The notes under the pieces were generated by a model, which ran no database searches, was not told the origin of the DNA, and saw nothing but the letters and a program-made list of their open reading frames with translations. A stretch of DNA of 64,000 nt from a virus: positions 32,001 through 96,000 of the IMG/VR virus record IMGVR_UViG_3300046694_000196; one strand, written 5' to 3'. Below are positions 1 to 30,676 of the stretch, in pieces. The position numbers were made by a program, and so were the translations under genes. Each line of letters opens with the position of its first letter. Positions within the stretch are counted from its first letter, which is position 1.

Positions 1-273
1 GACCGCGAGACGAAGTACGGAATGATCGTGCACGCCGAGATGAACGTCATCTACAACGCGTCACTGACCGGAGTATCACTCAAGGGGGCGACGCTGTACG
101 TGTCGGGGCTCCCTGTGTGCTCGACTTGTACGCTCGGAGTCATCCAGGCCGGCATCTCTCGCGTGGTCATCCGTTCGCGAGACATAAATAGGTCCGAGAA
201 ATGGAGAGCGTCCTGGGACAAGAGCAGCGAGCTGCTCAGAGAAGCGGGCGTAGCGGTAGTCGTAGTTGACTAG
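1..273 (+). CDS. cd: dCMP deaminase (5'-truncated by window edge)
   Basis: HAEMN and PVCSTC zinc-binding deaminase motifs; frame open from base 1. Confidence 0.9.
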   Translation, partial: DRETKYGMIVHAEMNVIYNASLTGVSLKGATLYVSGLPVCSTCTLGVIQAGISRVVIRSRDINRSEKWRASWDKSSELLREAGVAVVVVD

Positions 274-317
274 TCTCGGTTTCATGATAGTATGCAACAT
301 CATCGAGGACACTTGAA

Positions 318-1430
318 GTGACTACAAAGAAACTTTTGTTGACTGGTATGAACAAAAACCAGTGCGTGCGGAATTTCTTCCTGAAGCAGGAACTGAACGT
401 CGTCCCGTCTTCCTACGCCCTCATAAGGGCCTTCGAGGACATGGGCTACGAGGTAGACCAGAGGCCGGTGACCCTCGGGGAAGACCTGTCCCACTACGAC
501 GAGGTCGTAATCTACATCCACAGCCCGAAGGCCTTCTGTCAGTTCCTCTGGTCAGGTCTCTACGCCGTGCACGCCCGCCCGGACGCGATCTTCGCGTTCG
601 ATGACTGGCAGGTCAAGCAGATCATGTACTCGATCAAGTCGTACAACGACTACCTGATCGAAGAGGACTACGTCAAGGCCTACAAGGACTACTACTTCGA
701 CCTGTGGCAGGGCAGGGAGTCTCGAGAAGAGGTCGCCCTCTACTCGGCCCAGTACCGCGAGGCCTGCGAGCGCATCCTCCGCAAGGAGAACAGGCTGCTG
801 ATCTCGGCCTTCGCGGGCGGAAACGTCGACGCACTCAACCTGGACTGGAAGGGGAACGTGTTCACGTTCAACCCGAACCCGTACCACCTGAACCGCACCC
901 CCGAGAACAACTTCGGCGTCGAGAAAGTCAAGACGTTCGACGACTTCTTCGGCGGAGACGAAGAGGCGGTCAAGAAGCATGAGTGGAACTTCGCGTCGCT
1001 TGTCCAGAAGAAGACCCGCGCGTGGGTAGACAAGCAGGGAGTGAAGTCCTGGCCCATCAACTACTACGGCTCCAAGAGGAACGAGGAGAAGTGCGAGCGC
1101 CTGACAGAAGACCAGATGTGCCGCAAGTTCTCCACCCAGTGGGGCATCCTCTATCCGGGATACGGCAAGATGTGTGAGTCGGGCTGGTGGCGGGCGCGCC
1201 CTCTCCAGGTCGCGGACGCCGGCTCTATCCTGGTCGGTGAGAAACCCGAGCTTATGATCTACTACAGGGACGCGTCCCTCATCCAGAGCGCCTCCACCGT
1301 AGAGGGACTCACCGACGCGCAGCTAGAGAAGCTCGCGAGGTGGCAGCGCGAGGCCCTGTATGCGAACCACCCCCTCGACAAGTCGGTCACTCGGCGAGAA
1401 CTGGAGGCAGTCCTCGATGCACCCAGATAA
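318..1430 (+). CDS. putative GT-B fold glycosyltransferase, distantly T4 beta-glucosyltransferase-like
   Basis: 370 aa; N-terminal VPSSYALIRAFEDMGYEVD resembles T4 BGT VPSSETIYLFKVISEMGLNVD; C-terminal WWRARPLQVADAGSIL resembles a GT-B donor-binding region; next to UGM. Confidence 0.55.
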   Translation: MTTKKLLLTGMNKNQCVRNFFLKQELNVVPSSYALIRAFEDMGYEVDQRPVTLGEDLSHYDEVVIYIHSPKAFCQFLWSGLYAVHARPDAIFAFDDWQVKQIMYSIKSYNDYLIEEDYVKAYKDYYFDLWQGRESREEVALYSAQYREACERILRKENRLLISAFAGGNVDALNLDWKGNVFTFNPNPYHLNRTPENNFGVEKVKTFDDFFGGDEEAVKKHEWNFASLVQKKTRAWVDKQGVKSWPINYYGSKRNEEKCERLTEDQMCRKFSTQWGILYPGYGKMCESGWWRARPLQVADAGSILVGEKPELMIYYRDASLIQSASTVEGLTDAQLEKLARWQREALYANHPLDKSVTRRELEAVLDAPR

Positions 1431-2481
1431 GAACAGACGCATACTCGTGATCGGCGCTGGCTTCTCAGGAGCAGTCATCGCCCGTGAGCTAGCAGAGTTC
1501 GGGTGGGACGTGTACGTCATGGACAAGCGAGACCACGTTGCGGGCAACGCCTATGACTACGAGCACAACCTTGGGCCACGCGTACACAAGTACGGCCCGC
1601 ACCTTTTCCACACCAACAACGAGCGAGTCTGGGACTACCTCCAGCGCTTCGGCGACTGGGTCCCGTACAGGCACAGAGTGAAGGCCATGCTCAAGGACGG
1701 GCGCTTCGTGACGCTACCCGTCAACCGAGAGACCAAGGAGGTCGTGGGTGAAGAGAACGTGCTCGACGTGTTCTACAGGCCATACACACGAAAGATGTGG
1801 GGCGTGGAGCTTGACGAACTTGATCCTTCCGTTGCGAAGCGAGTGCCAGTCCGCGACGACGACAACGAGTTCTACTTCCCTGACGACGCATTCCAGGCGC
1901 TGCCGCGAGAAGGGTACACTCAACTGGTCAGGAATATCCTGGACCACGAGAACATCACTGTGGGACTAGGACGGAAATTCTTCAAAGGGTTGGAACAGTA
2001 CTACTTTCACGTCTTCAATTCTATGCCGATCGACGAGTACTATGACTTCTGTTTCGGCGAGCTCCCGTACAGGTCCATCAAGTTCAGTACCCGCTTCGTC
2101 TCTCACCCGAACTTCTTTGACGACCTCCCCGCCGCCACCGTGAACTTCACTGGAGACGGCCCGTTCACGCGAGTCACGTGCTGGAACAAGCTCCCGAACT
2201 CACCGCCGGCAGAGCACGACGTCTGGACGTACGAGCAGCCATGTGACTACCGCGACAACGACATGGAGCGGTACTACCCGGTGAAGGACCGAGACGGCAA
2301 GAACCGCGCCACGTACGAGCAGTACAAGGCGATCCCGAACGAGAAGACTACTTTCATCGGCAGGACCGGGCTCTACGCCTACCTCGACATGCACCAGGCA
2401 GTCAACATAGCACTACAGACCGCGAAGAAGTTCAATGACGCGCACAGCAGCGATATTCACGACCAGGGCGTTCAGCTCTGA
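1417..2481 (+). CDS. glf: UDP-galactopyranose mutase
   Basis: GAGFSG FAD-binding motif, HKYGPHLFHTN, YTRKMWG, ERYYP, GRTGLYAYLDM; ATG 1417 with GGAG RBS. Confidence 0.95.
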   Translation: MHPDKNRRILVIGAGFSGAVIARELAEFGWDVYVMDKRDHVAGNAYDYEHNLGPRVHKYGPHLFHTNNERVWDYLQRFGDWVPYRHRVKAMLKDGRFVTLPVNRETKEVVGEENVLDVFYRPYTRKMWGVELDELDPSVAKRVPVRDDDNEFYFPDDAFQALPREGYTQLVRNILDHENITVGLGRKFFKGLEQYYFHVFNSMPIDEYYDFCFGELPYRSIKFSTRFVSHPNFFDDLPAATVNFTGDGPFTRVTCWNKLPNSPPAEHDVWTYEQPCDYRDNDMERYYPVKDRDGKNRATYEQYKAIPNEKTTFIGRTGLYAYLDMHQAVNIALQTAKKFNDAHSSDIHDQGVQL

Positions 2482-3523
2482 CTTCACTTCCCTCTACGAG
2501 TCCATGCACTTCCTGAGGGAGTACGACAGGATAGTGTTCTACCACGCCTACGGCACCGACAAGGTGGTCGAGGCAGTCGAGAGACTCGGCCGCGTCGTCG
2601 TCTCTGAGGTAGTGCACACCAAGTCCTGGTTCGACCGGTGCGTATCCGGCGACTTTCCTACCTGGAGGCATTTCTATGAAGCTTTCGACCCTCACGTCCC
2701 GGAACGCGGGATTGATGACGTCTACCTCTTTGGCGCGCCTCTCTCAGACGGCGGAAAGCTCAAGAGGAAGCACAACGGTCTACAGAAGAACCTTGACAAC
2801 AACAAGTTCATCACCTTCGTCAGCGTCGCTAAGCATTACTTCACCGCTTACGCGGCTGTCAAGCTCGCTAACGTCACCGGAGCCGCTTTCCACGAGGTGT
2901 GCTATGACCCTGGAGAGAACTCTGTGGGGCAGCTCGTTGACGTCATACGACCGGTCTCTGTTCGCGTTTACCACGGCTACGACATAGCGCGCTTCGGCAT
3001 AGAGAAGCACCGTTTCTTCCAGGACGGCATGGCCCAGTCGCGGTCTTCTCCCTTCGATGACGACGATGAAGTCGACCACGACGTGGTCTTCGGCTACAGC
3101 TACATGACCAGGGACCGCCGAGCCTCCCACGAGTACGCTCAAGACGTCATCTCGGTCGTGCGGTCACTCCCGGGAGTCAGGTCTCGCTTCCTGGTGAAGA
3201 ACAAGGTCGAGGGCTACGACACGTCTGTGAGTCGTGAGGAGTACATGCGACTCATCCGCAAGTCACGGTTCACGTTCGTGGCGCCGGCGTACGAGCCAGG
3301 CGTCTTCTCGCCGTTCAGGTACATCGAGGCCGTCTTGTCGGGCTGCCTCCCCCTCGTCTTCGAGACCTGCGCATACAGAGAGTTCTTTGACTCGTGGGGC
3401 GTCCCCGTGGACTCCGTGCACGCGACGATAGTCAACCGTGGCAGCGTAGCGGCTGCACTAGAGATGGACGAGATGGACCGGCGGGCGCTGGTGGAGTACC
3501 TCCGCGCCAAGTTTCTCGCGTAG
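2435..3523 (+). CDS. putative GT-B glycosyltransferase
   Basis: C-terminal EEYMRLIRKSRFTFVAPAYEPGVFSPFRYIEAVLSGCLPLV is typical of GT-B donor-binding domains; overlaps glf. Confidence 0.6.
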   Translation: MTRTAAIFTTRAFSSDFTSLYESMHFLREYDRIVFYHAYGTDKVVEAVERLGRVVVSEVVHTKSWFDRCVSGDFPTWRHFYEAFDPHVPERGIDDVYLFGAPLSDGGKLKRKHNGLQKNLDNNKFITFVSVAKHYFTAYAAVKLANVTGAAFHEVCYDPGENSVGQLVDVIRPVSVRVYHGYDIARFGIEKHRFFQDGMAQSRSSPFDDDDEVDHDVVFGYSYMTRDRRASHEYAQDVISVVRSLPGVRSRFLVKNKVEGYDTSVSREEYMRLIRKSRFTFVAPAYEPGVFSPFRYIEAVLSGCLPLVFETCAYREFFDSWGVPVDSVHATIVNRGSVAAALEMDEMDRRALVEYLRAKFLA

Positions 3524-3535
3524 CCCCTCCCGGCC

Positions 3536-3565
3536 TATAAATATCCTAGAATGCAACTCTAGGAT
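3536..3565 (+). promoter_or_regulatory. T4-type late promoter plus RBS-sequestering hairpin
   Basis: TATAAATA 3536-3543; ATCCTAGA(3543-50)/TCTAGGAT(3558-65) stem covers the AGGA RBS of the 3574 gene. Confidence 0.8.
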
Positions 3566-3573
3566 GACTCAAC

Positions 3574-4758
3574 ATGAACGCAATGACTTGGTCCTCTATC
3601 GTCCCCCTCATCGGCGGCGAGACCATAGCCATGGAGAGGGTCTTCGGCAACCGCCCAGAAGAACTGCTCTCCTACTCCCCATTCGCTTCTAACGACGCGC
3701 ACATCGTGAACCACTACGACGGCGAGGTCCCCTACCGCCTGATCGACAAGGAAGAGTTCACCCCCCGCCGCGTAGACGTAGTCAACTCGGTCTGCCCCTG
3801 CGCAGGGCTCTCGTCTCTGTCTCCCACTTCCGCTGCGGACTCTAAGGTCAACGAGTGGATGTTCGAGTCGTCGAAATACGTCTTCGAGAACGTCAAGCCG
3901 ACCGTGCTCTGGGGAGAGAACGCCCCCCACTTCGCTACGAACAAGGGCACGCTGATCCGAGAACGGCTGCGAGACATGGCACTCGACCACGGGTACTCCA
4001 TGAGCGTCATGAAGACGAAGTCACTCGTGCACGGCCTGCCCCAGATCAGGACCAGGAGCTTCTACTTCTTCTGGCGAGGCATGGACGCGCCGCTCTTTGA
4101 CTACTACCACCGGCCGCACGTCAAGATAGAAGACCTCATCCGGGGAGTCAAGTCAAACTCCCAGAGAGAAGTCATCGGCCGGGGAAAACCGTCTGACAAC
4201 AAGTACCTCGAGTTCATCCTCGAGCACGTCCGCAGGCAGACTTTCCAGGAGTTCTATGACTCCCTGCAGAAGTCTGAGAGCGTCATCACGATCATCGAGC
4301 AAGAGTCCGACTGGGTCTCGTGCGCTGAGTGGATGGAGTCCAAGGGGTACGACCGCGAGGCCAAGTCGTCACGACGCCGCCAGGCCAAGCTCGACGACAA
4401 CAAGGGCTACATGAAGAAAGACCTGCTGTTCGCGAAGGACTACATCGGCGCGTTCGTCGGGCACCTCCCTCACTCCATCAGGCACCCCGACGAAGACCGC
4501 TTCATCGACTACCGCGAGGCCATGACCATCATGGGGCTCCCCGACGACTTCGAGCTGCTCGACCCGAAGCACAGCTCCAACCACATATGCCAGAACGTCC
4601 CGGTGCAGACCGCGACCGACATGGCCACGGAGGTCCGAGAAGTACTCCTCGGCAACAGGAGGTCCTCGGGGCACAGGTACGTGCTGCAGGACAACGTTCA
4701 CCAGAAAGTAGAAGAGACCCTCTTCCCCTCGAAGACACTCGTAGACTTCGCTGTCTGA
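3574..4758 (+). CDS. DNA cytosine-C5 methyltransferase (atypical motif I)
   Basis: CPCAGLS (motif IV), ENAP (VI), QIRTRSFY (VIII), YREAMTIMGLPDDF...QNVP (IX/X); motif I is PLIGG. Confidence 0.8.
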   Translation: MNAMTWSSIVPLIGGETIAMERVFGNRPEELLSYSPFASNDAHIVNHYDGEVPYRLIDKEEFTPRRVDVVNSVCPCAGLSSLSPTSAADSKVNEWMFESSKYVFENVKPTVLWGENAPHFATNKGTLIRERLRDMALDHGYSMSVMKTKSLVHGLPQIRTRSFYFFWRGMDAPLFDYYHRPHVKIEDLIRGVKSNSQREVIGRGKPSDNKYLEFILEHVRRQTFQEFYDSLQKSESVITIIEQESDWVSCAEWMESKGYDREAKSSRRRQAKLDDNKGYMKKDLLFAKDYIGAFVGHLPHSIRHPDEDRFIDYREAMTIMGLPDDFELLDPKHSSNHICQNVPVQTATDMATEVREVLLGNRRSSGHRYVLQDNVHQKVEETLFPSKTLVDFAV

Positions 4759-4769
4759 CGAGAAACCAG

Positions 4770-4798
4770 TTGACAAACTGGCCCACCCGTGATATACT
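4770..4798 (+). promoter_or_regulatory. sigma70-like/early promoter
   Basis: TTGACA-N17-TATACT. Confidence 0.8.
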
Positions 4799-4822
4799 GT
4801 ACATTCACCCAGGAAATTTGTC

Positions 4823-5062
4823 ATGGCACTATCCGGTTCAAACGGCGACTACTATCGCCTGCCCGAAGCCGCCCGCGAGCTTCAAGACCTCATCGAACAC
4901 CGCAACATGAACTTCGCCGTCGGGAACATATTCAAGGCCTGCTACAGGCTCGGTTCCAAAGAGGGCACCGACGACGTGTACGACCTCGAGAAGATGATCT
5001 TCTTCGCGTCGAGGGAGCTGGCACGAATCAAGAAGGAGAGACGCGATGTACACTGCGATTAG
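4823..5062 (+). CDS. DUF3310-like protein (T7 gp1.7 nucleotide kinase-like)
   Basis: MNFAVGNIFKACYRLGSK...DLEKMIFFASRE pattern. Confidence 0.7.
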   Translation: MALSGSNGDYYRLPEAARELQDLIEHRNMNFAVGNIFKACYRLGSKEGTDDVYDLEKMIFFASRELARIKKERRDVHCD

Positions 5063-5294
5063 GCTCATCAACAGCGACTACTTCAACGGCCCGTGGGCCT
5101 TCGGACAGATATCAGACGTCATGGCCGACCTCGGCTACGACCTGACGGGGACGTGCGAGTCCCCGGTACAGTACGAGTTCCTGTACTCGCTGGACCTCCC
5201 AGAGGAACTGACACAGGACGAAATACGACGGGAGTTCGAAGAGCTCCTGCCAGAGTTCACCGTCGAAGTGCTCCGCTACGACATCGAAGAGTAA
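5046..5294 (+). CDS. hypothetical protein
   Basis: 82-aa ORF overlapping upstream gene, phage-like codon usage. Confidence 0.7.
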   Translation: MYTAIRLINSDYFNGPWAFGQISDVMADLGYDLTGTCESPVQYEFLYSLDLPEELTQDEIRREFEELLPEFTVEVLRYDIEE

Positions 5295-5304: not shown

Positions 5305-6288
5305 TTGCAATTCAACATTGAAATCGAGAAACTGAGAGAGTGCAAGCTCTTCGTGGCAGTGCCGATGTACGGCGGGATGTGCCACGGTAACTTCACTCGC
5401 TCCATCATGGACCTCACCGCGCTCTGTGCCCGCTACAGTGTCCACATGCGCACGTACTTCCTCTTCAACGAGTCCCTGATCAGCCGCGCGCGCGCGTACT
5501 GTGCCGACGAGTTCCTCCGCTCTGACTGCACCCACATGCTCTTCATCGACGCCGACATCACGTTCAACGCGAACGACGTCATCGCGATGATAGCGGTCCA
5601 GCTCATGGACCCCGAGAACAAGGACATCGTCGCGGCGGCTTACCCCAAGAAGTGCATCACCTGGGAGAAGATCAAGCTGGCAGTCGACAAGGGCTTCGCT
5701 GACGAGGACCCCAACAGGCTCGAGGACTTCGTGGGTGACTTCGTGTTCAACCCGGTGTCCGGCACTTCCATCCTGCTAAGTGAGCCCGCCGAGGTCGCCG
5801 AGGCCGGCACCGGCTTCATGCTCATCCCGCGCAACACGTTCGACCGCTTTAACGTGGCGTACCCCGAGTTCCGGTACCTGCCAGACCACGCGCGCAGCGA
5901 CAACTTCGACGGCACCCGCGAGATCACCATGTTCTTCGACTGCGTCATCGACAAGGACCGCAAGGAGTCTGAGTTCGAGGCGATGATGGACGACATCCTG
6001 GCACTAGAAGTAGGTTCTCCTGACGACGAGCTCGACGTCGAGAAACTGCAGGCCAAGGTCAAGGACATCCGTCTCCGTGAGAAGAACAGCTCGAAGAGGT
6101 ACCTGTCGGAGGACTACTACTTCTGCCAGAACGTCCGCAGGGCCGGCATGAAGGTGTGGATCTGTCCGTGGATCGAGCTGCAGCACAGCGGTTTCTACAC
6201 GTTCGGGGGCAAGCTCGCCGCGCTCGCCGCGATCGGCGCCTCCGCCACAGTCGACAAAGACGCACTAAAGAAGAGAGCCAAGGCATGA
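5305..6288 (+). CDS. GT-A-like glycosyltransferase conserved in T4-like phages
   Basis: LFVAVPMYGG, NESLISRAR, THMLFIDADI (DxD), RYLSEDYYFC; TTG start with AAGGA. Confidence 0.75.
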   Translation: MQFNIEIEKLRECKLFVAVPMYGGMCHGNFTRSIMDLTALCARYSVHMRTYFLFNESLISRARAYCADEFLRSDCTHMLFIDADITFNANDVIAMIAVQLMDPENKDIVAAAYPKKCITWEKIKLAVDKGFADEDPNRLEDFVGDFVFNPVSGTSILLSEPAEVAEAGTGFMLIPRNTFDRFNVAYPEFRYLPDHARSDNFDGTREITMFFDCVIDKDRKESEFEAMMDDILALEVGSPDDELDVEKLQAKVKDIRLREKNSSKRYLSEDYYFCQNVRRAGMKVWICPWIELQHSGFYTFGGKLAALAAIGASATVDKDALKKRAKA

Positions 6289-6482: not shown

Positions 6483-6636
6483 GTATAGATTCGCCCTGAT
6501 CAACCACGCCCGAGACATACTCCGGGACGCCGGCGCGATCGATGGCTACCGATTTCACCCCGAACAGTACGAAGCCCACGTCTTGGCCCTCGCCGAGAAG
6601 ATCCACGCGTGGGTCGAGAAGGACCTGTCTGCATGA
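6457..6636 (+). CDS. hypothetical protein (59 aa, not in ORF track)
   Basis: MKLTQSTIEYRFALINHARDILRDAG...; GGAG RBS; stop overlaps gp45 ATG. Confidence 0.6.
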   Translation: MKLTQSTIEYRFALINHARDILRDAGAIDGYRFHPEQYEAHVLALAEKIHAWVEKDLSA

Positions 6637-7280
6637 AGCTATCCGACGAGACTCTCAACATCCTGAAGAACTTCGCGACGATCAACAAGGCGATCGAAGT
6701 GAAGGCCGGCAACGTGCTGGCAACTATCTCTCCCGCGAAGACCATCTTCGCCAAGACGACCGTCCCCGAGAACTTCGAAGTCGGCTTCGCTATCTACGAG
6801 CTACCGAAGTTCCTGGGCGCACTCAGCCTGTTCGGCGAGCCCACGCTGGACTTCAAGGACAAGTACGTCACCATCTCGGAGGGGTCGACGAAGATCCGAT
6901 ACACATACTGTGACCCTTCTACGATCGTCACCGCGCCGTCGAAGGAGATCAAGCTCCCCGACGTCGTCGCTTCCTTCGACGTCAAGTCGTCGAGCATCGC
7001 GGCGCTGATGAAGTCCCTGGGCGTCCTCGGCCTGCCTGAGATCATGGTGCACGGGGACGGCACTGCTATCTACCTGTCGGCGGCCAACTCGAAGAACCAG
7101 TCAGCCGACGAGTTCTCAGTGAAGGTCGCGGACTCCGAGGCGGAGTTCAAGGTCTACTTCAACAAGGAGAACTTCAAGCTCCTCGACCGTGACTACGAGG
7201 TCTCTGTGTCCAAGTCAGGCCTCGCGGAGTTCAAGTCGGGCGACCTGAAGTACTTCGTCATCGGGGCCGCTAACACGTGA
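6633..7280 (+). CDS. 45: sliding clamp
   Basis: MKLSDETLNILKNFATIN, FAIYELPKFL, IRYTYCDPSTI; adjacent to clamp loader. Confidence 0.95.
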   Translation: MKLSDETLNILKNFATINKAIEVKAGNVLATISPAKTIFAKTTVPENFEVGFAIYELPKFLGALSLFGEPTLDFKDKYVTISEGSTKIRYTYCDPSTIVTAPSKEIKLPDVVASFDVKSSSIAALMKSLGVLGLPEIMVHGDGTAIYLSAANSKNQSADEFSVKVADSEAEFKVYFNKENFKLLDRDYEVSVSKSGLAEFKSGDLKYFVIGAANT

Positions 7281-7609
7281 ACCGAGACGAGCTGAACTTC
7301 GTCGTAGAGTTCATTGACGCCATGGCCTCCCGCGGCGCGATCCGCGGGAGCGAACTGCTGAACGTGGGCTCCCTGCGTGCGCGGGCGCTCGAAGACATCA
7401 TGGAGATGAACGATGGAACTGAGCCAGGACCTGCGGGACATAGTCTGGGTCGAGAAGTACAGGCCGCAGACGATCGAGGACTGCATCCTGCCGGAAGCCC
7501 TGAAGGAGACGTTCCGGGGCTTCGTGAAGAAAGGGAACCTGCCGAACTTGCTCCTGCACGGCGGCCCCGGCATAGGAAAGACTACGGTAGCGAGGGCGAT
7601 GCTCCGTGA
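7277..7609 (+). CDS. small conserved phage protein (C-terminal extent uncertain)
   Basis: FIDAMASRGAIRGSELLNVGSLR N-terminus looks coding; 3' part overlaps gp44 by ~200 nt. Confidence 0.5.
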   Translation: MNRDELNFVVEFIDAMASRGAIRGSELLNVGSLRARALEDIMEMNDGTEPGPAGHSLGREVQAADDRGLHPAGSPEGDVPGLREEREPAELAPARRPRHRKDYGSEGDAP

Positions 7610-8372
7610 GCTGGACTCCGACTACATAGTAGTCAACGGGTCCCTCAACGGCAACATCGATACCCTCAGGAACGAGATCAAGGACTTCGCGTCGAGCGTG
7701 TCCCTGTTCAAGGCCGGCCGCAAGTACGTCATCCTGGACGAGGCCGACTACCTGAACGCCAACAGCGTACAGCCCGCCCTGCGCAACTTCATGGAGGAGT
7801 ACTCCAAGAACTGCGGCTTCATCCTGACGTGTAACTACAAGAACCGCATCATCGAGCCCCTGCACTCCAGGCTGGTCGGAGTAGACTTCTCTTCTTCCCC
7901 GAAGGAAGTGGACCAGCTCAAGTTCCAGTTCTTCAAGAGACTCAAGTTCATCCTGGAGAACGAGCGTGTCGCCTACGACAAGGCGGTGCTGGTCGAACTC
8001 ATCAAGAAGCACTTCCCCGACATGCGACGGGTCATCAACGAGGTCGAGCGGTACTCGGCCAACGGCGCGGTCGACTCCGGCATACTTGTCAGCCTGCTGG
8101 ACGACAACTTCGCGCGCCTGGTATCTGCACTCAAGGACAAGAAGTTCAACGAGATGAGGAAGTGGGTCGCAGAGAACTCACACCTGGACACCGCCGACGT
8201 CATCAGGAAGGTCTACGAGGCCGCTGACGGGCTTATGACTCCCCAGAGCATAGCGGCTTTCATCATCCTGGCACAGAAGTACCTCTACCAGTCGGCGTTC
8301 AGCTCTGACTCTGAGATCACGACCAGCGCCTTCCTCACAGAGACGATGATCGAGACGGAGTGGCTCGCGTGA
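7413..8372 (+). CDS. 44: clamp loader large subunit
   Basis: WVEKYRP, GGPGIGKT Walker A, ILDEAD, SRL, DMRR. Confidence 0.97.
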   Translation: MELSQDLRDIVWVEKYRPQTIEDCILPEALKETFRGFVKKGNLPNLLLHGGPGIGKTTVARAMLRELDSDYIVVNGSLNGNIDTLRNEIKDFASSVSLFKAGRKYVILDEADYLNANSVQPALRNFMEEYSKNCGFILTCNYKNRIIEPLHSRLVGVDFSSSPKEVDQLKFQFFKRLKFILENERVAYDKAVLVELIKKHFPDMRRVINEVERYSANGAVDSGILVSLLDDNFARLVSALKDKKFNEMRKWVAENSHLDTADVIRKVYEAADGLMTPQSIAAFIILAQKYLYQSAFSSDSEITTSAFLTETMIETEWLA

Positions 8373-16135: not shown

Positions 16136-16450
16136 TCACTGCGGCGGGCCCGGGTCTTCACTCGGGCCGTCGTCTTTCCCGAAGTCGTACGACCTCTTGA
16201 CGTTCTCGATCTCTTCGCGACCCTTCTGCCAAGACACCGCGCCCAAGATGGCGCCGATCGCCAGGTAGAACGTGCCTGAGCCGTCCATCGTGAGCGGCAC
16301 CCACGGCGCTATAGCTATCCCCGCCTTGATCATCCCCAGTACTATGCTGGGAGCGACCACGAAGTCGAACAGGATGATCACCACGAACGCCCAGGCTATC
16401 GCCGCGCGCCAGTGCTTCACGAATGCGTTCTCTATGTCTCTCTTCTTCAT
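16136..16450 (-). CDS. membrane protein, 3TM holin-like
   Basis: WRAAIAWAFVVIILFDFVVAP...LTMDGSGTFYLAIGAILGAVSW; late promoter GATAAATA at 16462-16455. Confidence 0.65.
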   Translation of the reverse strand: MKKRDIENAFVKHWRAAIAWAFVVIILFDFVVAPSIVLGMIKAGIAIAPWVPLTMDGSGTFYLAIGAILGAVSWQKGREEIENVKRSYDFGKDDGPSEDPGPPQ

Positions 16451-16468
16451 AGGATATTTATCGACTTG

Positions 16469-17956
16469 ATGGAATTTTACACTCACGCTGCCCAGTGGGG
16501 CGGCAAGGTGCGGGTCCGCGGCTGGAAGAACGGCCGCAGGTTCCAGGACTCGATCCCGTACAGGCCCTACCTCTTCACTCGCTCGAAGACGAACGAGCCG
16601 ACGGGTTACGTGACTCTCCGGGACCAGCCAGTCGACCGAGTCCAGTTCGACTCGATCTATGACGCCAAGGAGTTCGTGGAGCGGTACAGAGACGTTCACA
16701 ACTTCGAGGTGTACGGCTCAACTAACTGGCCGTACGCCTACCTCTACGACGTCTACGGCCGCGGCATGGAGTACGATGCCAAGCAGGTCTCGGTCGTCAA
16801 CGTCGACATCGAGGTCGGCGCCGACGAGTTCCCCGACCCGTGGAAGGCCGACTGGCCGATCACGGCAATCACCCTCGAGAAGAACAAGAAGTACGTCTCT
16901 TTCGGCCTGATGCCCTACGTCCCCGCGGACCCCGAAGACGTCTACGTCATGTGCGAGTCCGAGGAGGACATGCTCGAGCGGTTCATCACGGCGTGGCTCA
17001 ACTTCGACCCCGACGTGGTCACGGGATGGAACATCGACTACTTCGACGTGCCCTACCTCGTCAACCGCATCAGGAAGCTCCTGGGTGACGACTACGCTTG
17101 CATGCTGTCTCCCTGGAAGAAGATCAAGGAGAGCACCGTCTTCTACCACGGCTCCAACAAGACGCTTTACGACCTGGTGGGGGTCACCTCCCTGGACTAC
17201 CTCCCCCTCTACAAGAAGTTCTCGTTCTCTAACGAGGAGTCCTACCGCCTCGACAACATCGCGTTCGTGACAATCGGCGAGAAGAAGCTGGACTACTCAG
17301 AGTACGAGTCGCTCAACGACCTCTACAAGAACAACTTCCAGCTGTTCATGGAGTACAACCGTCGCGACGTCGCGCTGGTGTCTAGAATGAACGACAAGCT
17401 CGGGTTCATCGAGCAGGTCTTCGCGATGGCCTACGACACGCTGGTCAACTTCTCAGACACGTTCACGACCGTGAAGTTCTGGGAGATCATCTGCCACAAC
17501 TACCTGCTCGACCAGGGAGTAGTCTCGCCCCAGAAGAAGCACTCCATCAAGGAGAAGCAGATCGCGGGCGGGCACGTCAAGGAGCCTATCACGGGTCGGC
17601 ACGAGTGGGTGGCCTCTTTCGACCTCGACAGCCTCTACCCCCACCTCATCATGCAGTACAACATCAGCCCCGAGACGCTGGTGGACCGCCTGGACGAGCT
17701 CCCGTCTGAAGAAAGCTCAGTGGACCGGATACTCAACGGGTTCATGAACGAGGAGCGACTCGCGCAGCTGCGGGAGGCAGACCTCTCCTTGACGGCCGGA
17801 GGCGCCCTGTACTCGCGAGCGAAGCGGGGCTTCGCGGCGGCCCTCATGGACAAGTTCTACGAGGACCGAAAGAAGTTCAAGGGGATGATGAACGAAGAGA
17901 AGAAGAACCTCGAGGCCATAGAGGCCGAGATGAAGAGACGAGGACTGGCGCTGTGA
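16469..17956 (+). CDS. 43A: family B DNA polymerase, N-terminal half (gp43A: exonuclease + motif A)
   Basis: DIE (ExoI), GWNIDYFDVPY (ExoII), YNRRDV (ExoIII), SFDLDSLYPHLIMQYNISPET (motif A); stops in fingers domain. Confidence 0.95.
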   Translation: MEFYTHAAQWGGKVRVRGWKNGRRFQDSIPYRPYLFTRSKTNEPTGYVTLRDQPVDRVQFDSIYDAKEFVERYRDVHNFEVYGSTNWPYAYLYDVYGRGMEYDAKQVSVVNVDIEVGADEFPDPWKADWPITAITLEKNKKYVSFGLMPYVPADPEDVYVMCESEEDMLERFITAWLNFDPDVVTGWNIDYFDVPYLVNRIRKLLGDDYACMLSPWKKIKESTVFYHGSNKTLYDLVGVTSLDYLPLYKKFSFSNEESYRLDNIAFVTIGEKKLDYSEYESLNDLYKNNFQLFMEYNRRDVALVSRMNDKLGFIEQVFAMAYDTLVNFSDTFTTVKFWEIICHNYLLDQGVVSPQKKHSIKEKQIAGGHVKEPITGRHEWVASFDLDSLYPHLIMQYNISPETLVDRLDELPSEESSVDRILNGFMNEERLAQLREADLSLTAGGALYSRAKRGFAAALMDKFYEDRKKFKGMMNEEKKNLEAIEAEMKRRGLAL

Positions 17957-18195
17957 TAGACGAGAGAATCCTGACGAGGTACGAGGAGATGCTGGGACAC
18001 GGCGAAGTCGCCTGCGAGCCAGAACCCGGAATTTCTCTCGCGCACCTCAGGTGGATGCTCAGAGAGATACGAGACCAGGAAGACGAACTGAAGTCTTCTC
18101 GTTGGCTCGGGTTCGTACAGGGCGTCCTCGTCATGATGGGAGTGACTACCGTCACAGAAGAGAGAAATTTCACACGGTCCTACTTCAGGAGTTAG
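17953..18195 (+). CDS. conserved phage hypothetical protein
   Basis: HLRWML...KSSRWLGFVQGVL. Confidence 0.75.
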   Translation: MIDERILTRYEEMLGHGEVACEPEPGISLAHLRWMLREIRDQEDELKSSRWLGFVQGVLVMMGVTTVTEERNFTRSYFRS

Positions 18196-18197
18196 AC

Positions 18198-18758
18198 ATG
18201 AACGTACTGACAGGCAAGCAGAGAGACATATTCGTCAGCTCAGACCACCACTTCAACCACGCGAACATACTGGGCTTCACGACAGTCGGCGGCAGCAAGT
18301 TCCGGGGCGACCTCTTCGACAGCGTCGAAGAGATGAACGAGGTCATGGTAGAGCGACACAACGCGGTGGTGGGCAGCAATGATATCTGGTACTGTCTTGG
18401 CGACGTTTACTTTGGTCACCGCGATGATGCTGCTAAAATTCTACCTCGACTGAACGGGAAGAAGCGGCTCATCCTGGGTAACCACGACGACGGCAAGTGT
18501 CCCGTCTTGCAACACCACTTCGAGAAGGTCATGCTCTGGCGGTTCTTCAAGGAGTTCGACTGCCTGCTGTCGCACACTCCCCAGCACGAGTCGAACCTCT
18601 ACAAGGTGACGTTCAACGTGCACGGGCACATCCACCAGAACGAGTCACCCTCTCTGAGGCACGTGAACGCCTGCGTCGAGAAGACCGGGTACGCTCCCGT
18701 GAACCTCGAGCAGCTGATGACCGACCACAAGCTGCTCACGCAGGAGACCTTCGGTTGA
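18198..18758 (+). CDS. calcineurin-like metallophosphoesterase
   Basis: SDHHFNH, LGDV, LGNHD, SHTP, VHGHIH. Confidence 0.92.
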   Translation: MNVLTGKQRDIFVSSDHHFNHANILGFTTVGGSKFRGDLFDSVEEMNEVMVERHNAVVGSNDIWYCLGDVYFGHRDDAAKILPRLNGKKRLILGNHDDGKCPVLQHHFEKVMLWRFFKEFDCLLSHTPQHESNLYKVTFNVHGHIHQNESPSLRHVNACVEKTGYAPVNLEQLMTDHKLLTQETFG

Positions 18759-18922
18759 CGCCGCTGACCTACACGCTCATACTCATCCTGTCGTCGAACA
18801 GCACGGTCGGCGGGTACGACACCGTCTCGGCCCCGTTCCGGTCTATGGAACAGTGCACTCTGGCGCAGGCAGACCTCGCAGTTAAGTTCAAGGCGAGGGT
18901 AGTGTTCGCGAAGTGCTATTGA
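18755..18922 (+). CDS. small secreted Cys-pair protein
   Basis: hydrophobic N-terminus, FRSMEQC...KC. Confidence 0.6.
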   Translation: MTPLTYTLILILSSNSTVGGYDTVSAPFRSMEQCTLAQADLAVKFKARVVFAKCY

Positions 18923-18924
18923 CA

Positions 18925-18953
18925 GTTTACATTTCTCGATTTCCTGATATACT
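18925..18953 (+). promoter_or_regulatory. T4-type early promoter for gp43B
   Basis: GTTTAC-N17-TATACT with TG extension. Confidence 0.85.
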
Positions 18954-18978
18954 GTAACTTCAGCTAGGACATACTCCC

Positions 18979-20079
18979 ATCGATTACTCAACTCTCAGCG
19001 ATGCAGAGCTCAGGGCCCTGCGTCAAGAGACCGAAGTAAAGGTCTCCAAGTACCACAACACCCAGCAGGGCAAGAAGATCGCGCTCAACGCATTCTACGG
19101 AGCACAGAGCAACCAGTTCTTCCTGTACTACTCAGACGTCCTCGCAGAGAGCATCACTCTCTCAGGGCAGCTGTCGGTCAAGTGGATCGCCAAGAAGTTC
19201 AACGCGAAGCTCAACGGGGTCCTCAAGACCTCGGGCGTCGACTACGTGCTCATGGTCGATACAGACTCCAACTACCTGTGCCTGGACGCCCTCGTCAAGA
19301 AGGTGTTCCCCGACGGGGCCCCCAAGGAGAAGGTAGTCAACTTCATCGACAAGTTCTGCCGAGAAGTGCTGGCGCCGTTCATTCGAGAGTCCTTCGAGGA
19401 GCTCGCGACGATGATGAACGCGTTCGAGCAGCGGATGTCGATGAAGCGCGAGAACATCGCGGACGTGACGATCATCACGGGCAAGAAGAAGTACATCATG
19501 AACGTGTGGGACTCCGAGGGGGTCAGGTACGAGACGCCCAAGGTCAAGATGACCGGCATAGAGGCAGTGCGCTCCAACACCCCGTTCGTCTGCCGCGAGT
19601 ACATCAAGAAATCGATCGAGATCATCGTGAACGGCACCGAGGAACAGCTCCACGAGTACGTCGCGAAGTGCCGCGAGGCGTTCAACGGCCTCAGGTTCGA
19701 AGAGGTCGGGAAGCCGACGGGCGTCAACGGCATGAAGGACTACGCCGACAAGTACACCGTCTACCGTAAGGGCACCCCGATGCACGTGCGCGCGGCGCTG
19801 CTCTACAACAAGGTCATCAAGGAACAGAAGCTCGACAAGAAGTTCCCGCTGATCAACGACGGCGACAAGATCAAGTACACATACATGAAGGTGCCCAATC
19901 CCCTGCGCGAGAACGTCTTCGCGTGCACCACTTCTCTGCCTTCTGTCCTGAAACTAGAACAGTACATCGATTTCGATACGCAGTTCGCAAAGACCTTCCT
20001 CAGCCCGCTAGAGATCATCCTGAAGGAGATCGGGTGGCACCACGAGAAGCGTCTCTCACTAGAGGAGTTCTTCACATGA
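18979..20079 (+). CDS. 43B: family B DNA polymerase, C-terminal half (gp43B), probable ATC start
   Basis: frame upstream of the track's 19246 start carries motif B KIALNAFYGA; then motif C VDTDS and KKKY; in-frame TAA at 18955; AGGA 9 nt before ATC 18979. Confidence 0.9.
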   Translation: MDYSTLSDAELRALRQETEVKVSKYHNTQQGKKIALNAFYGAQSNQFFLYYSDVLAESITLSGQLSVKWIAKKFNAKLNGVLKTSGVDYVLMVDTDSNYLCLDALVKKVFPDGAPKEKVVNFIDKFCREVLAPFIRESFEELATMMNAFEQRMSMKRENIADVTIITGKKKYIMNVWDSEGVRYETPKVKMTGIEAVRSNTPFVCREYIKKSIEIIVNGTEEQLHEYVAKCREAFNGLRFEEVGKPTGVNGMKDYADKYTVYRKGTPMHVRAALLYNKVIKEQKLDKKFPLINDGDKIKYTYMKVPNPLRENVFACTTSLPSVLKLEQYIDFDTQFAKTFLSPLEIILKEIGWHHEKRLSLEEFFT

Positions 20080-24019: not shown

Positions 24020-24844
24020 ATGCTCAGCAGAGACCAGTTCGTAAAGGTAGTGGCAGGCGCGACCACGGCAAAGATCAACGCGTACATAGACCCGATATTC
24101 AACGCGATGCAGGAGTTCGGGATCGACACTTCTGAGAGACAGGTGATGTTCCTGGCGCAGGTGCTCACCGAGTCGGGCGCGCTGTCAGTAGTGGTCGAGA
24201 ACCTCAACTACTCTGCGGCGGGGCTGCTCAAGACGTTCCCGAAGTACTACCGCAACCAGGTCGAGGCCAACGCGCACGCGAAGCAGCCCGTGAAGATAGC
24301 TTCTCGAGTCTACGCCAGCCGCATGGGCAACGGGAACGAGGCGTCCCAGGACGGCTGGAAGTACAGGGGCCGCGGCCTCATCCAGATAACCGGCAAGAAC
24401 AACTACGTCTCGTTCGGTGAGGCCATCGGCCGCGACCTGACTGACGACCCGTCCTACCTGGAGACCCCCGAGGGTGCCTCTCGCTCGGCTGCCTGGTTCT
24501 GGAACGTCAACAACCTCAACAGGTTCGCGGACAGGAAAGACATCACCGGCTGCTCCAGGGCAGTGAACGGCGGCACCAACGGACTCGAGGAGCGCAAGCG
24601 CTACTACGCACACGGGCTAGACGTGATATCTGGCGACGCACCGTCTCCGGGCGTCGCCTTCACTACCCTCAAGGTAGGCTCGTCAGGTCCGGCAGTGGTG
24701 GAGATACAGACGCTGCTGGGCATCACCGCAGACGGACAGTTCGGCCCCGGCACCGCCGCGGCGGTCAAGACATTTCAGACCAGGAACGGCCTCGCGGCCG
24801 ACGGAATCGTGGGCCCGGCGACCTACGAAGAGTTGAAGAAGTAG
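24020..24844 (+). CDS. GH19 endolysin with C-terminal peptidoglycan-binding domain
   Basis: FLAQVLTES, ENLNYSA, YRGRGLIQITGKNNY, AVNGGTNGL; ADGQFGPGT/ADGIVGPAT. Confidence 0.95.
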   Translation: MLSRDQFVKVVAGATTAKINAYIDPIFNAMQEFGIDTSERQVMFLAQVLTESGALSVVVENLNYSAAGLLKTFPKYYRNQVEANAHAKQPVKIASRVYASRMGNGNEASQDGWKYRGRGLIQITGKNNYVSFGEAIGRDLTDDPSYLETPEGASRSAAWFWNVNNLNRFADRKDITGCSRAVNGGTNGLEERKRYYAHGLDVISGDAPSPGVAFTTLKVGSSGPAVVEIQTLLGITADGQFGPGTAAAVKTFQTRNGLAADGIVGPATYEELKK

Positions 24845-26309: not shown

Positions 26310-26486
26310 ATGTTTATCAAAGCCGCAAACGGAATGAAGTACCGTTTGGTACGCAACTCAGACCACTCTGATGAGTGGGTTGTTGTCGAACTTCATGCCG
26401 GCTCAAGGGATAAGACGGTGTTTCACGGTACGAAGTCTGAGTGTTCTGAGTGGATAGAACACAACGGGCACGACGAATGGAATTGA
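26310..26486 (+). CDS. small hypothetical protein
   Basis: AAGGA RBS; own promoter and terminator; AT-rich. Confidence 0.7.
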   Translation: MFIKAANGMKYRLVRNSDHSDEWVVVELHAGSRDKTVFHGTKSECSEWIEHNGHDEWN

Positions 26487-26501
26487 AATTTACTGCAATC
26501 T

Positions 26502-26522
26502 AGAGGCCTCCGGGCCTCTTTT
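26502..26522 (+). terminator. rho-independent terminator
   Basis: AGAGGCC-TCCG-GGCCTCT-TTT. Confidence 0.8.
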
Positions 26523-26525
26523 GTC

Positions 26526-26555
26526 GTTTACGTACCTGCTAGATTAGTTTATACT
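26526..26555 (+). promoter_or_regulatory. early promoter
   Basis: GTTTACG...TATACT. Confidence 0.75.
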
Positions 26556-26579
26556 GGTCGAGAAACAGAAAGGTGCACC

Positions 26580-26762
26580 ATGTTCGCTTCGATCATCATC
26601 TACTCCATCTCACTCGTCTTCTTCGTCCTGGGACTCCTGTTCCTCGGCGCGACGTTCCAGCCCGGCACGTCGAAGGGCACGGGACAGCTCGTCTGCCTGT
26701 TCTTCTTCTGCTTCTTCCTGCTCATCGCCGCCGGCGTAGCACTGGTGGGGGCTCACGTATGA
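26580..26762 (+). CDS. small 2-TM membrane protein
   Basis: two hydrophobic helices. Confidence 0.7.
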   Translation: MFASIIIYSISLVFFVLGLLFLGATFQPGTSKGTGQLVCLFFFCFFLLIAAGVALVGAHV

Positions 26763-26938
26763 TGGCTGTTCTGTTCTTCACCGCTGCCATGCTGGTCTAC
26801 GTCTTGTCGGTCGCGTTCTCGGGACTGAGTCGCGACGCGTCGGTGACGATGGGCCACCGAGTGGTCGCCGGGTGGATGGGAATTGCCCTGCTGTGCGTAG
26901 CGCTGATCCTAGCGATGTTCGGGAGCACGTACGTCTGA
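26759..26938 (+). CDS. small 2-TM membrane protein
   Basis: two hydrophobic helices; overlapping junctions. Confidence 0.7.
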   Translation: MMAVLFFTAAMLVYVLSVAFSGLSRDASVTMGHRVVAGWMGIALLCVALILAMFGSTYV

Positions 26939-28221
26939 TGCCATCGGAGTCCTACATGATGAGACAAGTGAAGACCTACCGGGTCGGCGGCAGCGTCCGC
27001 GACGAGCTGATGTTCGTAGACCCCAAAGACCGTGACTACGTAGTGGTCGGCTCTAAGGAAGAGTGGATGCTGGGCGGCGGCTTCAAGCGAGTCGGCCACG
27101 ACTTCCCGGTGTTCCTGCACCCCGAGACGGGTGAAGAGTACGCGCTGGCACGCACCGAGCGTAAGACGGGTGCGGGCTACTCAGGCTTCGAGACAGAGAC
27201 CGAGGGCGTGTCCCTGACAGACGACCTGCGCCGCCGCGACTTGACTATCAACGCCATGGCCCTGGACGAAGAGACCGGTGAACTGGTCGACCCGTTCGGG
27301 GGCGAGCGAGACCTGCGAGACCGGGTCCTGCGACACGTGGACCCCGACGGCTTCAAGGAAGACCCTGTCCGGGTCCTGCGGCTGGCTCGCTTCCTGGCCA
27401 GGTGGCCTGGCTTCCTGCCCGCCAAGGACACCGTCAAGCTGTGCAGGGAGATGGTCGAGGCCGGAGAGCTGGCACACCTGACTCCCGAGCGAGTCACCGC
27501 CGAGATGACGAAGGCCCTGACCGAGAAGTCTCCGAGCCGGTTCTTCGTCTTCCTGCGGATGGTCGGCGCCCTGGCCGTAGTGTTCCCTGAGGTCCAGGCC
27601 CTGGCGGGGGTCGAGCAGCCCTACGAGCACCACCCCGAGGGAGACGCCTTCGTGCACACCATGACGGTGATGGACCAGGCCGTTGACTGGGACGGGACTA
27701 CAGACCCGTTGGAAGCTTTCGCCGCGCTGGTGCACGACCTGGGCAAGGCAAAGACTCCCCGCGAGAAATGGCCGCACCACTACGGCCACGAGGAGGCCGG
27801 CTACTGGGTCGTCCAGTCGATGGCAGACCGCCTGAAGTTGTCGAACGAGTACAGGCACGTCGGCGCCATGGTCGCCCGGTACCACATGCACGTCCACAAG
27901 CTGCACGAGCTGCGGGCCAAGACGGTGCTGAAGATGTACCAGGACGTCAACACCAAGAGCTACTCGCGAGTGACACAAGTGCTGGCGAACGTGGCGAGGT
28001 GGGACGCCTCCGGCCGCGGACCGTTCTACTCAGGGCGCCGCTACGACAACGCGGTCGTACTGGGAGACGTATTCGACGCGCTGGACGAAGTCAAGCTGTC
28101 GAACCACTTCGGCGAGGGACAGATATCAGAGATGACGGTACACGAGATCAAGGACTTCCTGTACAGGGAGAAGCTGAGGGTCATCGACGCAACTAGGAGC
28201 AGACACTATGATCGATACTGA
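26938..28221 (+). CDS. cca: CCA-adding tRNA nucleotidyltransferase with HD domain
   Basis: VGGSVRD, DRDYVVVG, DLRRRDLTINAMA, EDPVRVLRLARF, HHPEGDAFVHT, ALVHDLGK. Confidence 0.95.
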   Translation: MPSESYMMRQVKTYRVGGSVRDELMFVDPKDRDYVVVGSKEEWMLGGGFKRVGHDFPVFLHPETGEEYALARTERKTGAGYSGFETETEGVSLTDDLRRRDLTINAMALDEETGELVDPFGGERDLRDRVLRHVDPDGFKEDPVRVLRLARFLARWPGFLPAKDTVKLCREMVEAGELAHLTPERVTAEMTKALTEKSPSRFFVFLRMVGALAVVFPEVQALAGVEQPYEHHPEGDAFVHTMTVMDQAVDWDGTTDPLEAFAALVHDLGKAKTPREKWPHHYGHEEAGYWVVQSMADRLKLSNEYRHVGAMVARYHMHVHKLHELRAKTVLKMYQDVNTKSYSRVTQVLANVARWDASGRGPFYSGRRYDNAVVLGDVFDALDEVKLSNHFGEGQISEMTVHEIKDFLYREKLRVIDATRSRHYDRY

Positions 28222-28447
28222 AGACAAGAGAAACGGTGAATGGAACCCGATCGAAACGGTCCCAAAGGACGGCGGCTGTTTCGAAGTTCTCTATGAGGAC
28301 GGGACTACTGAGCAAGAAGTGTATTGGAGCGATACCCGGTATTGCATGATAGGCCCTCCTCAAGGTTCTTGCGGTCCTGGGCTTCTCTCTACCGAAGCAG
28401 GCCACCTACCGATCGGTGACGGGATAACCCACTGGCGCCTAGCGTAG
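28208..28447 (+). CDS. hypothetical protein
   Basis: WNPIETVPKDG...ITHWR phage small-protein pattern. Confidence 0.7.
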   Translation: MIDTEDKRNGEWNPIETVPKDGGCFEVLYEDGTTEQEVYWSDTRYCMIGPPQGSCGPGLLSTEAGHLPIGDGITHWRLA

Positions 28448-28474
28448 AATAGAGTCAGACAAGGAGATCATACC

Positions 28475-29738: not shown

Positions 29739-29757
29739 AAATAAACGGAGTACAAGG

Positions 29758-30622: not shown

Positions 30623-30636
30623 GCGGCTCCCGAAAT

Positions 30637-30644: not shown

Positions 30645-30676
30645 GACGAGAAATTCATCCTATCGGGAGAGCGACC

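Follow-up and report, generated by a model that had tools for sequence, protein, structure and literature searches.

A putative 5-hydroxymethylcytosine glycosylation module with its own UDP-galactopyranose mutase in an uncultured T4-like phage of the rhizosphere

Sugars on the cytosines of phage DNA are known from several systems, and those closest to the locus presented here are the glucosyl-5-hydroxymethylcytosine (glucosyl-5hmC) of the T-even phages, the arabinosyl-5-hydroxycytosine (arabinosyl-5hoC) of RB69 and DLP3 (PMC13326640; Thomas et al. 2018, PMC6024577), the glycosylated 5hoC of Rhizobium phage RL38J1, and the phage pathways that combine a C5-cytosine methyltransferase (C5-MTase), a TET dioxygenase (5mYOX), and glycosyltransferases (PMC8256090; bioRxiv 10.1101/2023.12.21.572611). 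In the DNA of RL38J1, galactose and then glucose are carried by 5hoC, and a UDP-galactopyranose mutase (UGM) has been proposed as the supplier of UDP-galactofuranose (Lee et al. 2026, PMC13326640). Here, we studied a stretch of 64,000 nucleotides (hereafter, the window) corresponding to bases 32001-96000 of the 126-kb linear IMG/VR phage record IMGVR_UViG_3300046694_000196, which is 73% complete and has a G+C content of 59%. Among public sequencing runs, this stretch is carried by only one rhizosphere metagenome, kept as contigs and probably the source sample. The window opens with a block of five genes, namely the 3' end of a dCMP deaminase gene (cd), a glycosyltransferase gene (GT1), the UGM gene, a second glycosyltransferase gene (GT2), and a C5-MTase gene. 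We consider it quite probable that this locus is a 5hmC DNA glycosylation module of a T4-like phage. The full reading, in which the DNA would carry galactofuranosyl-5hmC, with GT2 providing a second sugar or serving other sites, is our prediction with moderate confidence.

The locus shares with the T-even pathway a gp42 with identical catalytic and specificity residues, a dCMP deaminase, the T4-like replication context, and post-replicative GT-B transferases that are closest in structure to T4 beta-glucosyltransferase (BGT). It differs from that pathway by the lack of sequence homology of its transferases to BGT or to T4 alpha-glucosyltransferase (AGT), and by its own UGM, so that the predicted donor is UDP-galactofuranose and not host UDP-glucose. 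Moreover, no homologue of gp56 or gp1 was found, a MazG-like candidate occurring instead, and a C5-MTase and a DUF1599 protein belong to the cluster, whose genes lie together between genes 46 and 45, whereas those of T4 are scattered. With RL38J1 and the Pootjesviridae, it has in common a phage UGM (31% identical to this one) and a thymidylate synthase homologue preparing the base. In RL38J1, several glycosyltransferases build mono- to trisaccharides with galactose in the base-proximal position, and 5hoC is made by a flavin-dependent thymidylate synthase homologue with Asn at the position of ThyA D169, while the Asp found here predicts 5hmC; RL38J1 also belongs to another virus family, and no relatives of GT1 or GT2 were detected among Rhizobium phages. 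RB69 and DLP3 are T4-like as well, with their own nucleotide-sugar supply and glycosyltransferases next to a thymidylate synthase homologue, but the sugar is supplied there by a kinase/nucleotidyltransferase and an isomerase rather than a mutase, and the base is 5hoC and not 5hmC. A preliminary description of the window, made from its letters alone, had referred to the arabinosylated cytosines of RB69-type phages, of which the arabinose on cytosine holds while the base is now known to be 5hoC (PMC13326640). Finally, the C5-MTase/TET/glycosyltransferase pathways also use 5hmC as the acceptor of transferases, some of them BGT-like, and also include a C5-MTase in the cluster; they differ in that no TET/JBP protein was found in the 73% complete record and 5hmC would be made at the nucleotide level by gp42. 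The 2023 preprint on these pathways (bioRxiv 10.1101/2023.12.21.572611) mentions neither a mutase nor a furanose. None of the papers that we found describes 5hmC bearing galactofuranose or any other sugar supplied by a mutase, and a literature search linking phage DNA modification with galactofuranose or UGM yielded just two works, Lee et al. 2026 and a genome paper of 2019 in which the gene is read as a host cell-wall function. The statement of the preliminary description that no UGM-supplied phage DNA modification had been described is thus outdated, since Lee et al. (PMC13326640) propose exactly this for RL38J1.

The preparation of the base argues first for a DNA modification. It had been suggested that a thymidylate synthase-like or TET partner may lie upstream of the window, and the gene turned up 1.7 kb 5' of window base 1 on the same strand (record 29569-30273; L002:15569-16273). 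Its 234-amino-acid (aa) product matches T4 dCMP hydroxymethylase (PDB 1B49/1B5D) over residues 5-222 with 229 bits (E 4e-67), compared with at most 45 bits for true thymidylate synthases, and is ~46% identical to T4 gp42. The enzyme keeps the catalytic Cys148, Asp179 for dCMP selection, Asp145 at the position of ThyA L143, and Asp171 at the position of ThyA D169, and these four residues are invariant in 44/44 distinct gp42 copies of related phages. According to Lee et al. (NAR 2026, PMC13326640, sections 24 and 28), 5-hydroxy-dCMP synthases carry Asn at the position of ThyA D169. Instead of this Asn of the RL38J1 type, this phage and its 44 relatives all have Asp, which argues for an enzyme of the hydroxymethyl and not of the hydroxy type. 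Homology thus shows a gp42-type thymidylate synthase homologue, expected to make 5-hydroxymethyl-dCMP.

To place these genes among relatives, 80 IMG/VR loci were scanned with the window's own proteins, and all counts of loci below refer to distinct loci with enough flank. A gene for a DUF1599 protein ("nucleotide modification associated domain 1") overlaps the gp42 start (record 29034-29576, same strand as the module) and stands directly 5' of gp42 in 27/34 loci. This protein was tried as a MazG-like dCTPase and set aside, hhalign against single-sequence targets, T4 gp56 and the phage's own PRA-PH protein, giving nothing. The MazG-like PRA-PH protein itself (record 24069-24632, same strand as the module, 32.8 bits), encoded 5 kb further upstream of the gp42 gene, is a candidate dCTPase. 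Searches of the record for other routes were negative within its 73% completeness: no PF12851 match to TET/JBP was found in its 126 kb (control genomes gave none either), tblastn with the TET protein of phage C48C1 found nothing, and tblastn with T4 a-gt and b-gt gave no match. No NAD-dependent epimerase was found in the record either. The location of the module among early DNA-metabolism genes and the lack of T4 a-gt or b-gt homologues elsewhere in the record were counted in favor of a DNA glycosylation module. The interval between gene 46 and the module (record 26438-31601; L002:12438-17601) also holds genes for a 528-aa GDSL-type esterase, a DexA-like exonuclease, a DUF4326 protein, and a gp30.3 homologue, beside those for DUF1599 and gp42.

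The two glycosyltransferases provide the second line of evidence. GT1 (318-1430, + strand) is a 370-aa protein belonging to no Pfam or NCBIfam family and matching phrog_14998; the gene caller starts it at 348, and the conserved first strand KK(I/L)L(I/L)TG favors the GTG at 318. Its AlphaFold2 model, built from the family alignment, has a predicted local distance difference test (pLDDT) score of 91 and a GT-B fold. Across the whole PDB, the best Foldseek match of this model was T4 BGT (E 4e-5), and with VIA-align the top 3 entries were again T4 BGT (Z 17.7/16.9/16.4; root-mean-square deviation [rmsd] 3.6; 295/351 residues aligned), followed by the next family at Z 15.6 and T4 AGT at 14.6. GT2 (2435-3523, + strand), of 362 aa and with only sub-threshold GT47/GT1 matches, likewise gave a GT-B model (pLDDT 95), for which T4 BGT occupied the top 4 VIA-align entries (Z 16.6-15.9; rmsd 3.9; 274 aligned), the next family being at 14.9. 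The arabinosyltransferase of phage HY126 (PDB 9IQZ) was among the structural matches of both (Z 12.8 for GT1 and 14.1 for GT2). Sequence profiles tell less: hhalign against T4 BGT reached a probability of 9.8% for GT1 and 3.1% for GT2, the GT1 profile found nothing among PDB sequences, no significant hhalign relation appeared between GT1 and GT2, and neither belongs by sequence to PF09198/CAZy GT63 according to Pfam, NCBIfam, and PDB sequences. As for the structural comparison with BGT and AGT proposed at the outset, it thus placed T4 BGT first in the PDB for both transferases, and a significant sequence-profile relation was not seen. As far as the models can tell, GT1 and GT2 are BGT-like by fold and context and stand outside the BGT sequence family. 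We propose GT1 as a 5hmC-DNA galactofuranosyltransferase. GT2 is rare, being present in 3/48 related loci and having only 10 close relatives in 5.8 billion proteins, and it is proposed to be an accessory enzyme adding a second sugar or serving a second set of 5hmC sites.

The company kept by GT1 in other phages is the most informative. At least 649 relatives of GT1, none of them annotated, were found in a large protein collection, and many lie on contigs 100-190 kb long. The gene order DUF1599, gp42-like, (cd), GT1, (UGM), C5-MTase, phrog_1574, gene 45 is near-invariant, a gp42-like gene being upstream of GT1 in 32/34 loci, the UGM directly after GT1 in 36/55, and the C5-MTase downstream in 41/43. 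The block is the same in a close relative with 77% GT1 identity, and another locus (L008, 58% GT1 identity) adds an NAD-dependent epimerase and a GT1-family transferase. A synteny comparison across T4-like phages had been suggested at the outset, and the same order recurs in dozens of independent metagenomic phage contigs, an arrangement far beyond chance. Farther away, GT1 and UGM also stand side by side in Aeromonas phage 25 and some twenty of its relatives and, just after motA, in Erwinia phage FBB1 (GT1 24-27% identical), as well as in phage C48C1 (GT1 33% identical), so that the pair, judging from these sequences, appears much older than this phage lineage. Aeromonas phage 25 and Erwinia phage FBB1 have gp42, and the cultured phages combining GT1-UGM with gp42 are Aeromonas phages 25, phiAS4, and Aes508 and Erwinia phage FBB1. 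The complete genome of C48C1 (OQ984149) has no gp42; immediately 5' of its GT1-UGM pair lies a TET/JBP dioxygenase gene (PF12851, 62.6 bits). TET/JBP enzymes are the second established means by which phages obtain 5hmC (Burke et al. 2021, PMC8256090). That the GT1-UGM pair travels with two unrelated 5hmC-making enzymes is our strongest argument for 5hmC DNA as the acceptor. The row of C48C1 consists of three genes, TET/JBP, GT1 homologue, and UGM (L003:6561-10008), with no homologue of the C5-MTase of the window. In the related Stenotrophomonas phage DLP6, the same gene 46-to-45 interval lacks gp42, GT1, UGM, and C5-MTase, which indicates that these genes are gained or missing together.

These associations bear on two other explanations. 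The mutase and the transferases could act away from DNA, either on the host envelope (lipopolysaccharide, O-antigen, or exopolysaccharide) for superinfection exclusion, or on virion proteins, their place near nucleotide-metabolism genes being a coincidence. Such a role would fit the weak matches of the C-terminal half of GT1 to glycosyltransferases of Gordonia phages, and actinophages are known to glycosylate their virions; BGT outscores GT-B enzymes acting on lipids or small molecules by only ~2 Z units, and Glf usually serves cell-surface galactofuranose, as the gene of Agrobacterium phage Atu_ph04 has been read (PMC6630229). We nevertheless find it quite improbable, because GT1 is linked to a cytosine hydroxymethylase in nearly all loci and to TET/JBP where gp42 is missing, because the module comes and goes together with gp42, because the locus lies between recombination and replication genes in what is apparently one transcription unit with a DNA methyltransferase, and because T4 BGT heads the PDB matches of both transferases. 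In addition, GT1 has no competitor as a candidate DNA transferase in phage 25, which carries gp42 (PMC2993671). The other explanation holds that these genes are unrelated neighbors in a hypervariable region, some of them inactive, the DNA containing only 5hmC and/or 5-methylcytosine. The gene 46-45 interval is indeed plastic, with homing-endonuclease-like genes and a different content in DLP6, and GT2 is rare; against this, the order DUF1599, gp42, (cd), GT1, (UGM), C5-MTase is kept down to 45% identity in dozens of contigs, the catalytic residues of gp42, UGM, and C5-MTase are conserved, and both transferase models are confident, their family alignments showing many invariant residues. We consider a chance assembly of this kind very improbable.

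The mutase is the gene that points to the sugar. UGM is a compact 354-aa protein (PF03275 163.7 bits, cut-off 26.3; PF13450 67 bits) with a GAGFSG (GxGxxG) flavin adenine dinucleotide (FAD) motif, and it matches the Klebsiella UGM with 235 bits (E 1.5e-68, ~40% identical). Its most likely start is the ATG at 1417 behind a GGAGG, within an open reading frame (ORF) of 1360-2481 on the + strand, so that the gene (1417-2481) overlaps the GT1 stop by 14 nucleotides. Residues Y155, W160, R174, Y185, N270, R280, Y314, and Y349 of the Klebsiella enzyme, which we take from the solved complexes to be its substrate-binding residues, are all aligned and identical in the phage UGM. This mutase and its phage relatives are all compact (336-359 aa), with a gap of ~38 residues relative to the Klebsiella enzyme and a His in place of its Asn84. 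By homology, the gene between the two transferases thus encodes a genuine and functional-looking UGM. We propose that UGM is the putative supplier of UDP-galactofuranose. In most UGM-carrying loci, GT1 is the sole transferase beside UGM, and hence the likely user of the mutase product; this is also the case in phage 25, FBB1, and C48C1, which all three lack the phrog_1574 family.

Several points weigh against this reading of the locus. First, the donor and the acceptor of GT1 are not readable from its sequence. The GT-B fold is generic, T4 BGT leading other GT-B enzymes by a margin of only ~2 Z units on these models, and the hhalign comparisons of GT1 or GT2 with BGT are not significant (probability <10%). 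T4-type gp56 dCTPase and gp1 dNMP kinase were not found by tblastn in a record only 73% complete, and in two GT1-UGM loci gp42 is missing from the surrounding 10 kb. Nor does the conservation of a C5-MTase sit easily with a complete replacement of cytosine. Concerning the donor, the phage UGM scores 274.1 bits with TIGR00031, just under the equivalog cut-off of 303.75 and in two stretches; compared with Klebsiella UGM, it lacks ~38 residues (104-141) of the helical domain and carries a His at Asn84, so that its substrate might differ, e.g., UDP-arabinose. Finally, about one third of the GT1 loci have no phage UGM, which suggests that GT1 can work without it, via host Glf or another donor.

One of the loci lacking gp42 within 10 kb (L054:9257-14918) has a PRA-PH/MazG-like gene and encodes a 478-aa protein in which an NAD-dependent sugar epimerase is fused to the N-terminal domain of a dATP/dGTP diphosphohydrolase, a single polypeptide that would tie sugar-nucleotide to deoxynucleotide-pool metabolism.

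From the donor-side points comes the explanation that 5hmC DNA is glycosylated with a sugar other than galactofuranose, either because GT1, like T4 BGT, uses a common host donor such as UDP-glucose or UDP-galactopyranose or because the mutase makes another furanose donor, e.g., UDP-L-arabinofuranose. Beside the shortened mutase, its score, and its His, it can draw on the 21 distinct UGM-less GT1 loci, forming one clade, which still keep GT1 beside gp42. Bacterial UGM accepts UDP-arabinose in vitro. Arabinose is, moreover, a proven phage DNA sugar (PMC13326640). In the GT1 maximum-likelihood tree, the 21 UGM-less rows form a single clade (99/100) nested among UGM rows, and 3/3 outgroups have UGM, which fits one loss of UGM, with the caveat that kin share labels. 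Against another sugar stand the adjacency of GT1 and UGM, often with overlapping stop and start, down to ~25% GT1 identity and across two 5hmC-producing enzymes, the position of GT1 as the only transferase beside UGM in most UGM loci and in phage 25, FBB1, and C48C1, and the conservation of the other substrate-holding residues of the Klebsiella UGM. The NAD-dependent epimerase of L008 also fits a path from UDP-glucose to UDP-galactose and then to UDP-galactofuranose. Altogether, we judge a different sugar unlikely and favor galactofuranose on 5hmC. The core of the preliminary description, a UGM-fed sugar locus acting on a modified cytosine, is with gp42 and the BGT-like folds the best-supported explanation, and its choice between galactofuranose and arabinofuranose is undecidable from sequence.

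The C5-MTase (3574-4758, + strand), last gene of the block, is the most faithful neighbor of GT1. Its catalytic motifs are intact and conserved, and its role, for which the preliminary description counted it in the locus, is hard to explain in a 5hmC phage. The protein matches PF00145 with 52.7 bits (cut-off 22) and has motifs I (GxG), IV (PC), VI (ENx), VIII (QxRxR), and X (NVP); motif IV reads PCA and not PCQ, and PLIGG, CPCAGLS, GENAP, QxRxR, and CQNVP are invariant in 57 distinct C5-MTase copies. A cytosine already substituted at C5 offers no substrate to such an enzyme. Since 5hmC would be made at the nucleotide level via gp42, the enzyme is not needed here as a precursor step, and the simplest idea, a guess prompted by the missing gp56, is the methylation of cytosines that escape replacement. 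The prediction of a GT1-C5-MTase complex gave a score of 0.00, obtained with no controls, and speaks neither for nor against binding. The same MTase family occurs in cyanophage S-TIM5, a phage without a gp42-like gene, and in the unannotated genome of Pseudoalteromonas phage vB_Psh_XG4 (PP712099), where its member is 28% identical and follows a GT2-like gene. In the XG4 cluster (L095:100-6580), a gp42-like thymidylate synthase homologue of the Asp/Asp type is accompanied by a small HAD-like ORF, by a fusion of a nucleotidyltransferase with an APH-type kinase, by the C5-MTase, and by two GT-B-like transferases, of which the second is a relative of GT2. It looks like a hybrid, combining a D-type thymidylate synthase homologue, a nucleotidyltransferase-kinase as in the RB69 arabinose pathway, two glycosyltransferases, and the MTase family of this phage, and it probably represents another, different 5hmC glycosylation pathway.

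A bolder proposal, which we put forward as a rather doubtful one, is that the phage makes two cytosine modifications at once, the MTase being an integral, co-selected part of the 5hmC-sugar pathway rather than a passenger. The DNA would then carry galactofuranosyl-5hmC, a hexofuranose not yet found on 5hmC, written through the nucleotide pool, and the MTase, of a specialized C5-MTase family with an invariant PCAGLS motif, would methylate escaped cytosines, carry out some other C5 chemistry, or act together with the transferase. If so, the triad of thymidylate synthase homologue, glycosyltransferase, and MTase, also present in XG4, would be a general design rule of environmental T4-like phages.

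The module lies in a T4-like replication region, the gene order of the record being 55, 47, 46, [module], 45, 44, 62, 43, uvsX, 41. All five genes of the block are on the + strand, at or very near the coordinates first given for them, and their placement just before the replication genes was borne out by gene 45 (6609-7280), gene 44 (7413-8372), and then gene 62 downstream. The dCMP deaminase gene enters the window with its 3' end only (1-273, + strand; C-terminal 90 aa; PF00383 E 6e-10; phrog_174); the full gene (L002:17722-18273) begins 279 nucleotides upstream of the window, and its product has the HAE and PCxxC zinc motifs. Its initial inclusion in the module has to be withdrawn, as this enzyme belongs to ordinary T4-like nucleotide metabolism and is missing from some related clusters. 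A promoter scan returned 5 sigma-70-like sites where 1.4 were expected from shuffles. At the module, such sites, which are consensus matches only, occur on the + strand just 5' of GT1 (266-293; TTGACT-16-TAGTAT with TG) and directly 3' of the MTase stop (4770-4798; TTGACA-17-TATACT, 11/12). Since there are no others at the module, GT1, UGM, GT2, and C5-MTase may form one transcription unit, of which the match at 4770-4798 likely marks the end.

Behind this strong promoter-like site lies a 118-aa ORF (4789-5145) whose nucleotide sequence is 72-78% identical to that of hypothetical genes found in unrelated podophages of Mesorhizobium and Rhizobium; it has the look of a small mobile gene common to rhizosphere phages. 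The following phrog_1574 protein (5305-6288, + strand) has invariant DSD and ED motifs and weak matches to Anp1 in 21/26 members and to GT21 in 18/26, Anp1 matches being found in 32% of the members of a look-alike cluster, and it is probably a GT-A fold glycosyltransferase. It was considered as a third transferase of the module and set aside because it is present in DLP6, which has no module, and absent from Aeromonas phage 25, FBB1, and C48C1. It is probably a core gene of the phage lineage, located before gene 45 and outside the 5hmC module. Farther downstream, the gene 43 DNA polymerase is split (16412-20079), its N-terminal part being in the ORF 16412-17956 and its C-terminal match at ~18988-20073, with a 235-aa ORF (18051-18758) between the halves; the relative L008 has the same split.

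We propose the following sequence of events. The gp42-type enzyme would make hydroxymethyl-dCMP, and the resulting hydroxymethyl-dCTP would be incorporated during replication, aided by the MazG-like pyrophosphatase, which would lower dCTP. UGM would convert host UDP-galactopyranose to UDP-galactofuranose, and GT1 would attach galactofuranose to 5hmC in double-stranded phage DNA, at its hydroxymethyl group. GT2 could then add a second sugar or modify the 5hmC sites left by GT1, as AGT and BGT split sites in T4. The apparently co-transcribed C5-MTase probably methylates cytosines left unreplaced, which is the weakest step of the model. The modified DNA would be protected from restriction enzymes, CRISPR nucleases, and type IV enzymes tuned to glucosyl-5hmC.

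Glycosylated 5hmC is a textbook example of phage DNA camouflage, affecting restriction, type IV restriction, CRISPR targeting, and phage sequencing and engineering. If our reading is true, a hexofuranose on 5hmC would be a new DNA sugar chemistry, and the enzymes would be new tools for 5hmC labeling; to our knowledge, mammals have no galactofuranose. It would also explain the puzzle left in 2010 by phage 25, which has genes 42 and 56 and no glucosyltransferase (Petrov 2010, PMC2993671); the Aeromonas phage papers hold nothing on DNA modification. The locus would thus represent a new, as yet unproven variant of the sugar camouflage of phage T4 against host nucleases, in an uncultured T4-like phage of the rhizosphere, and the number of unannotated metagenome relatives indicates that the GT1 family appears common in environmental T4-like phages.

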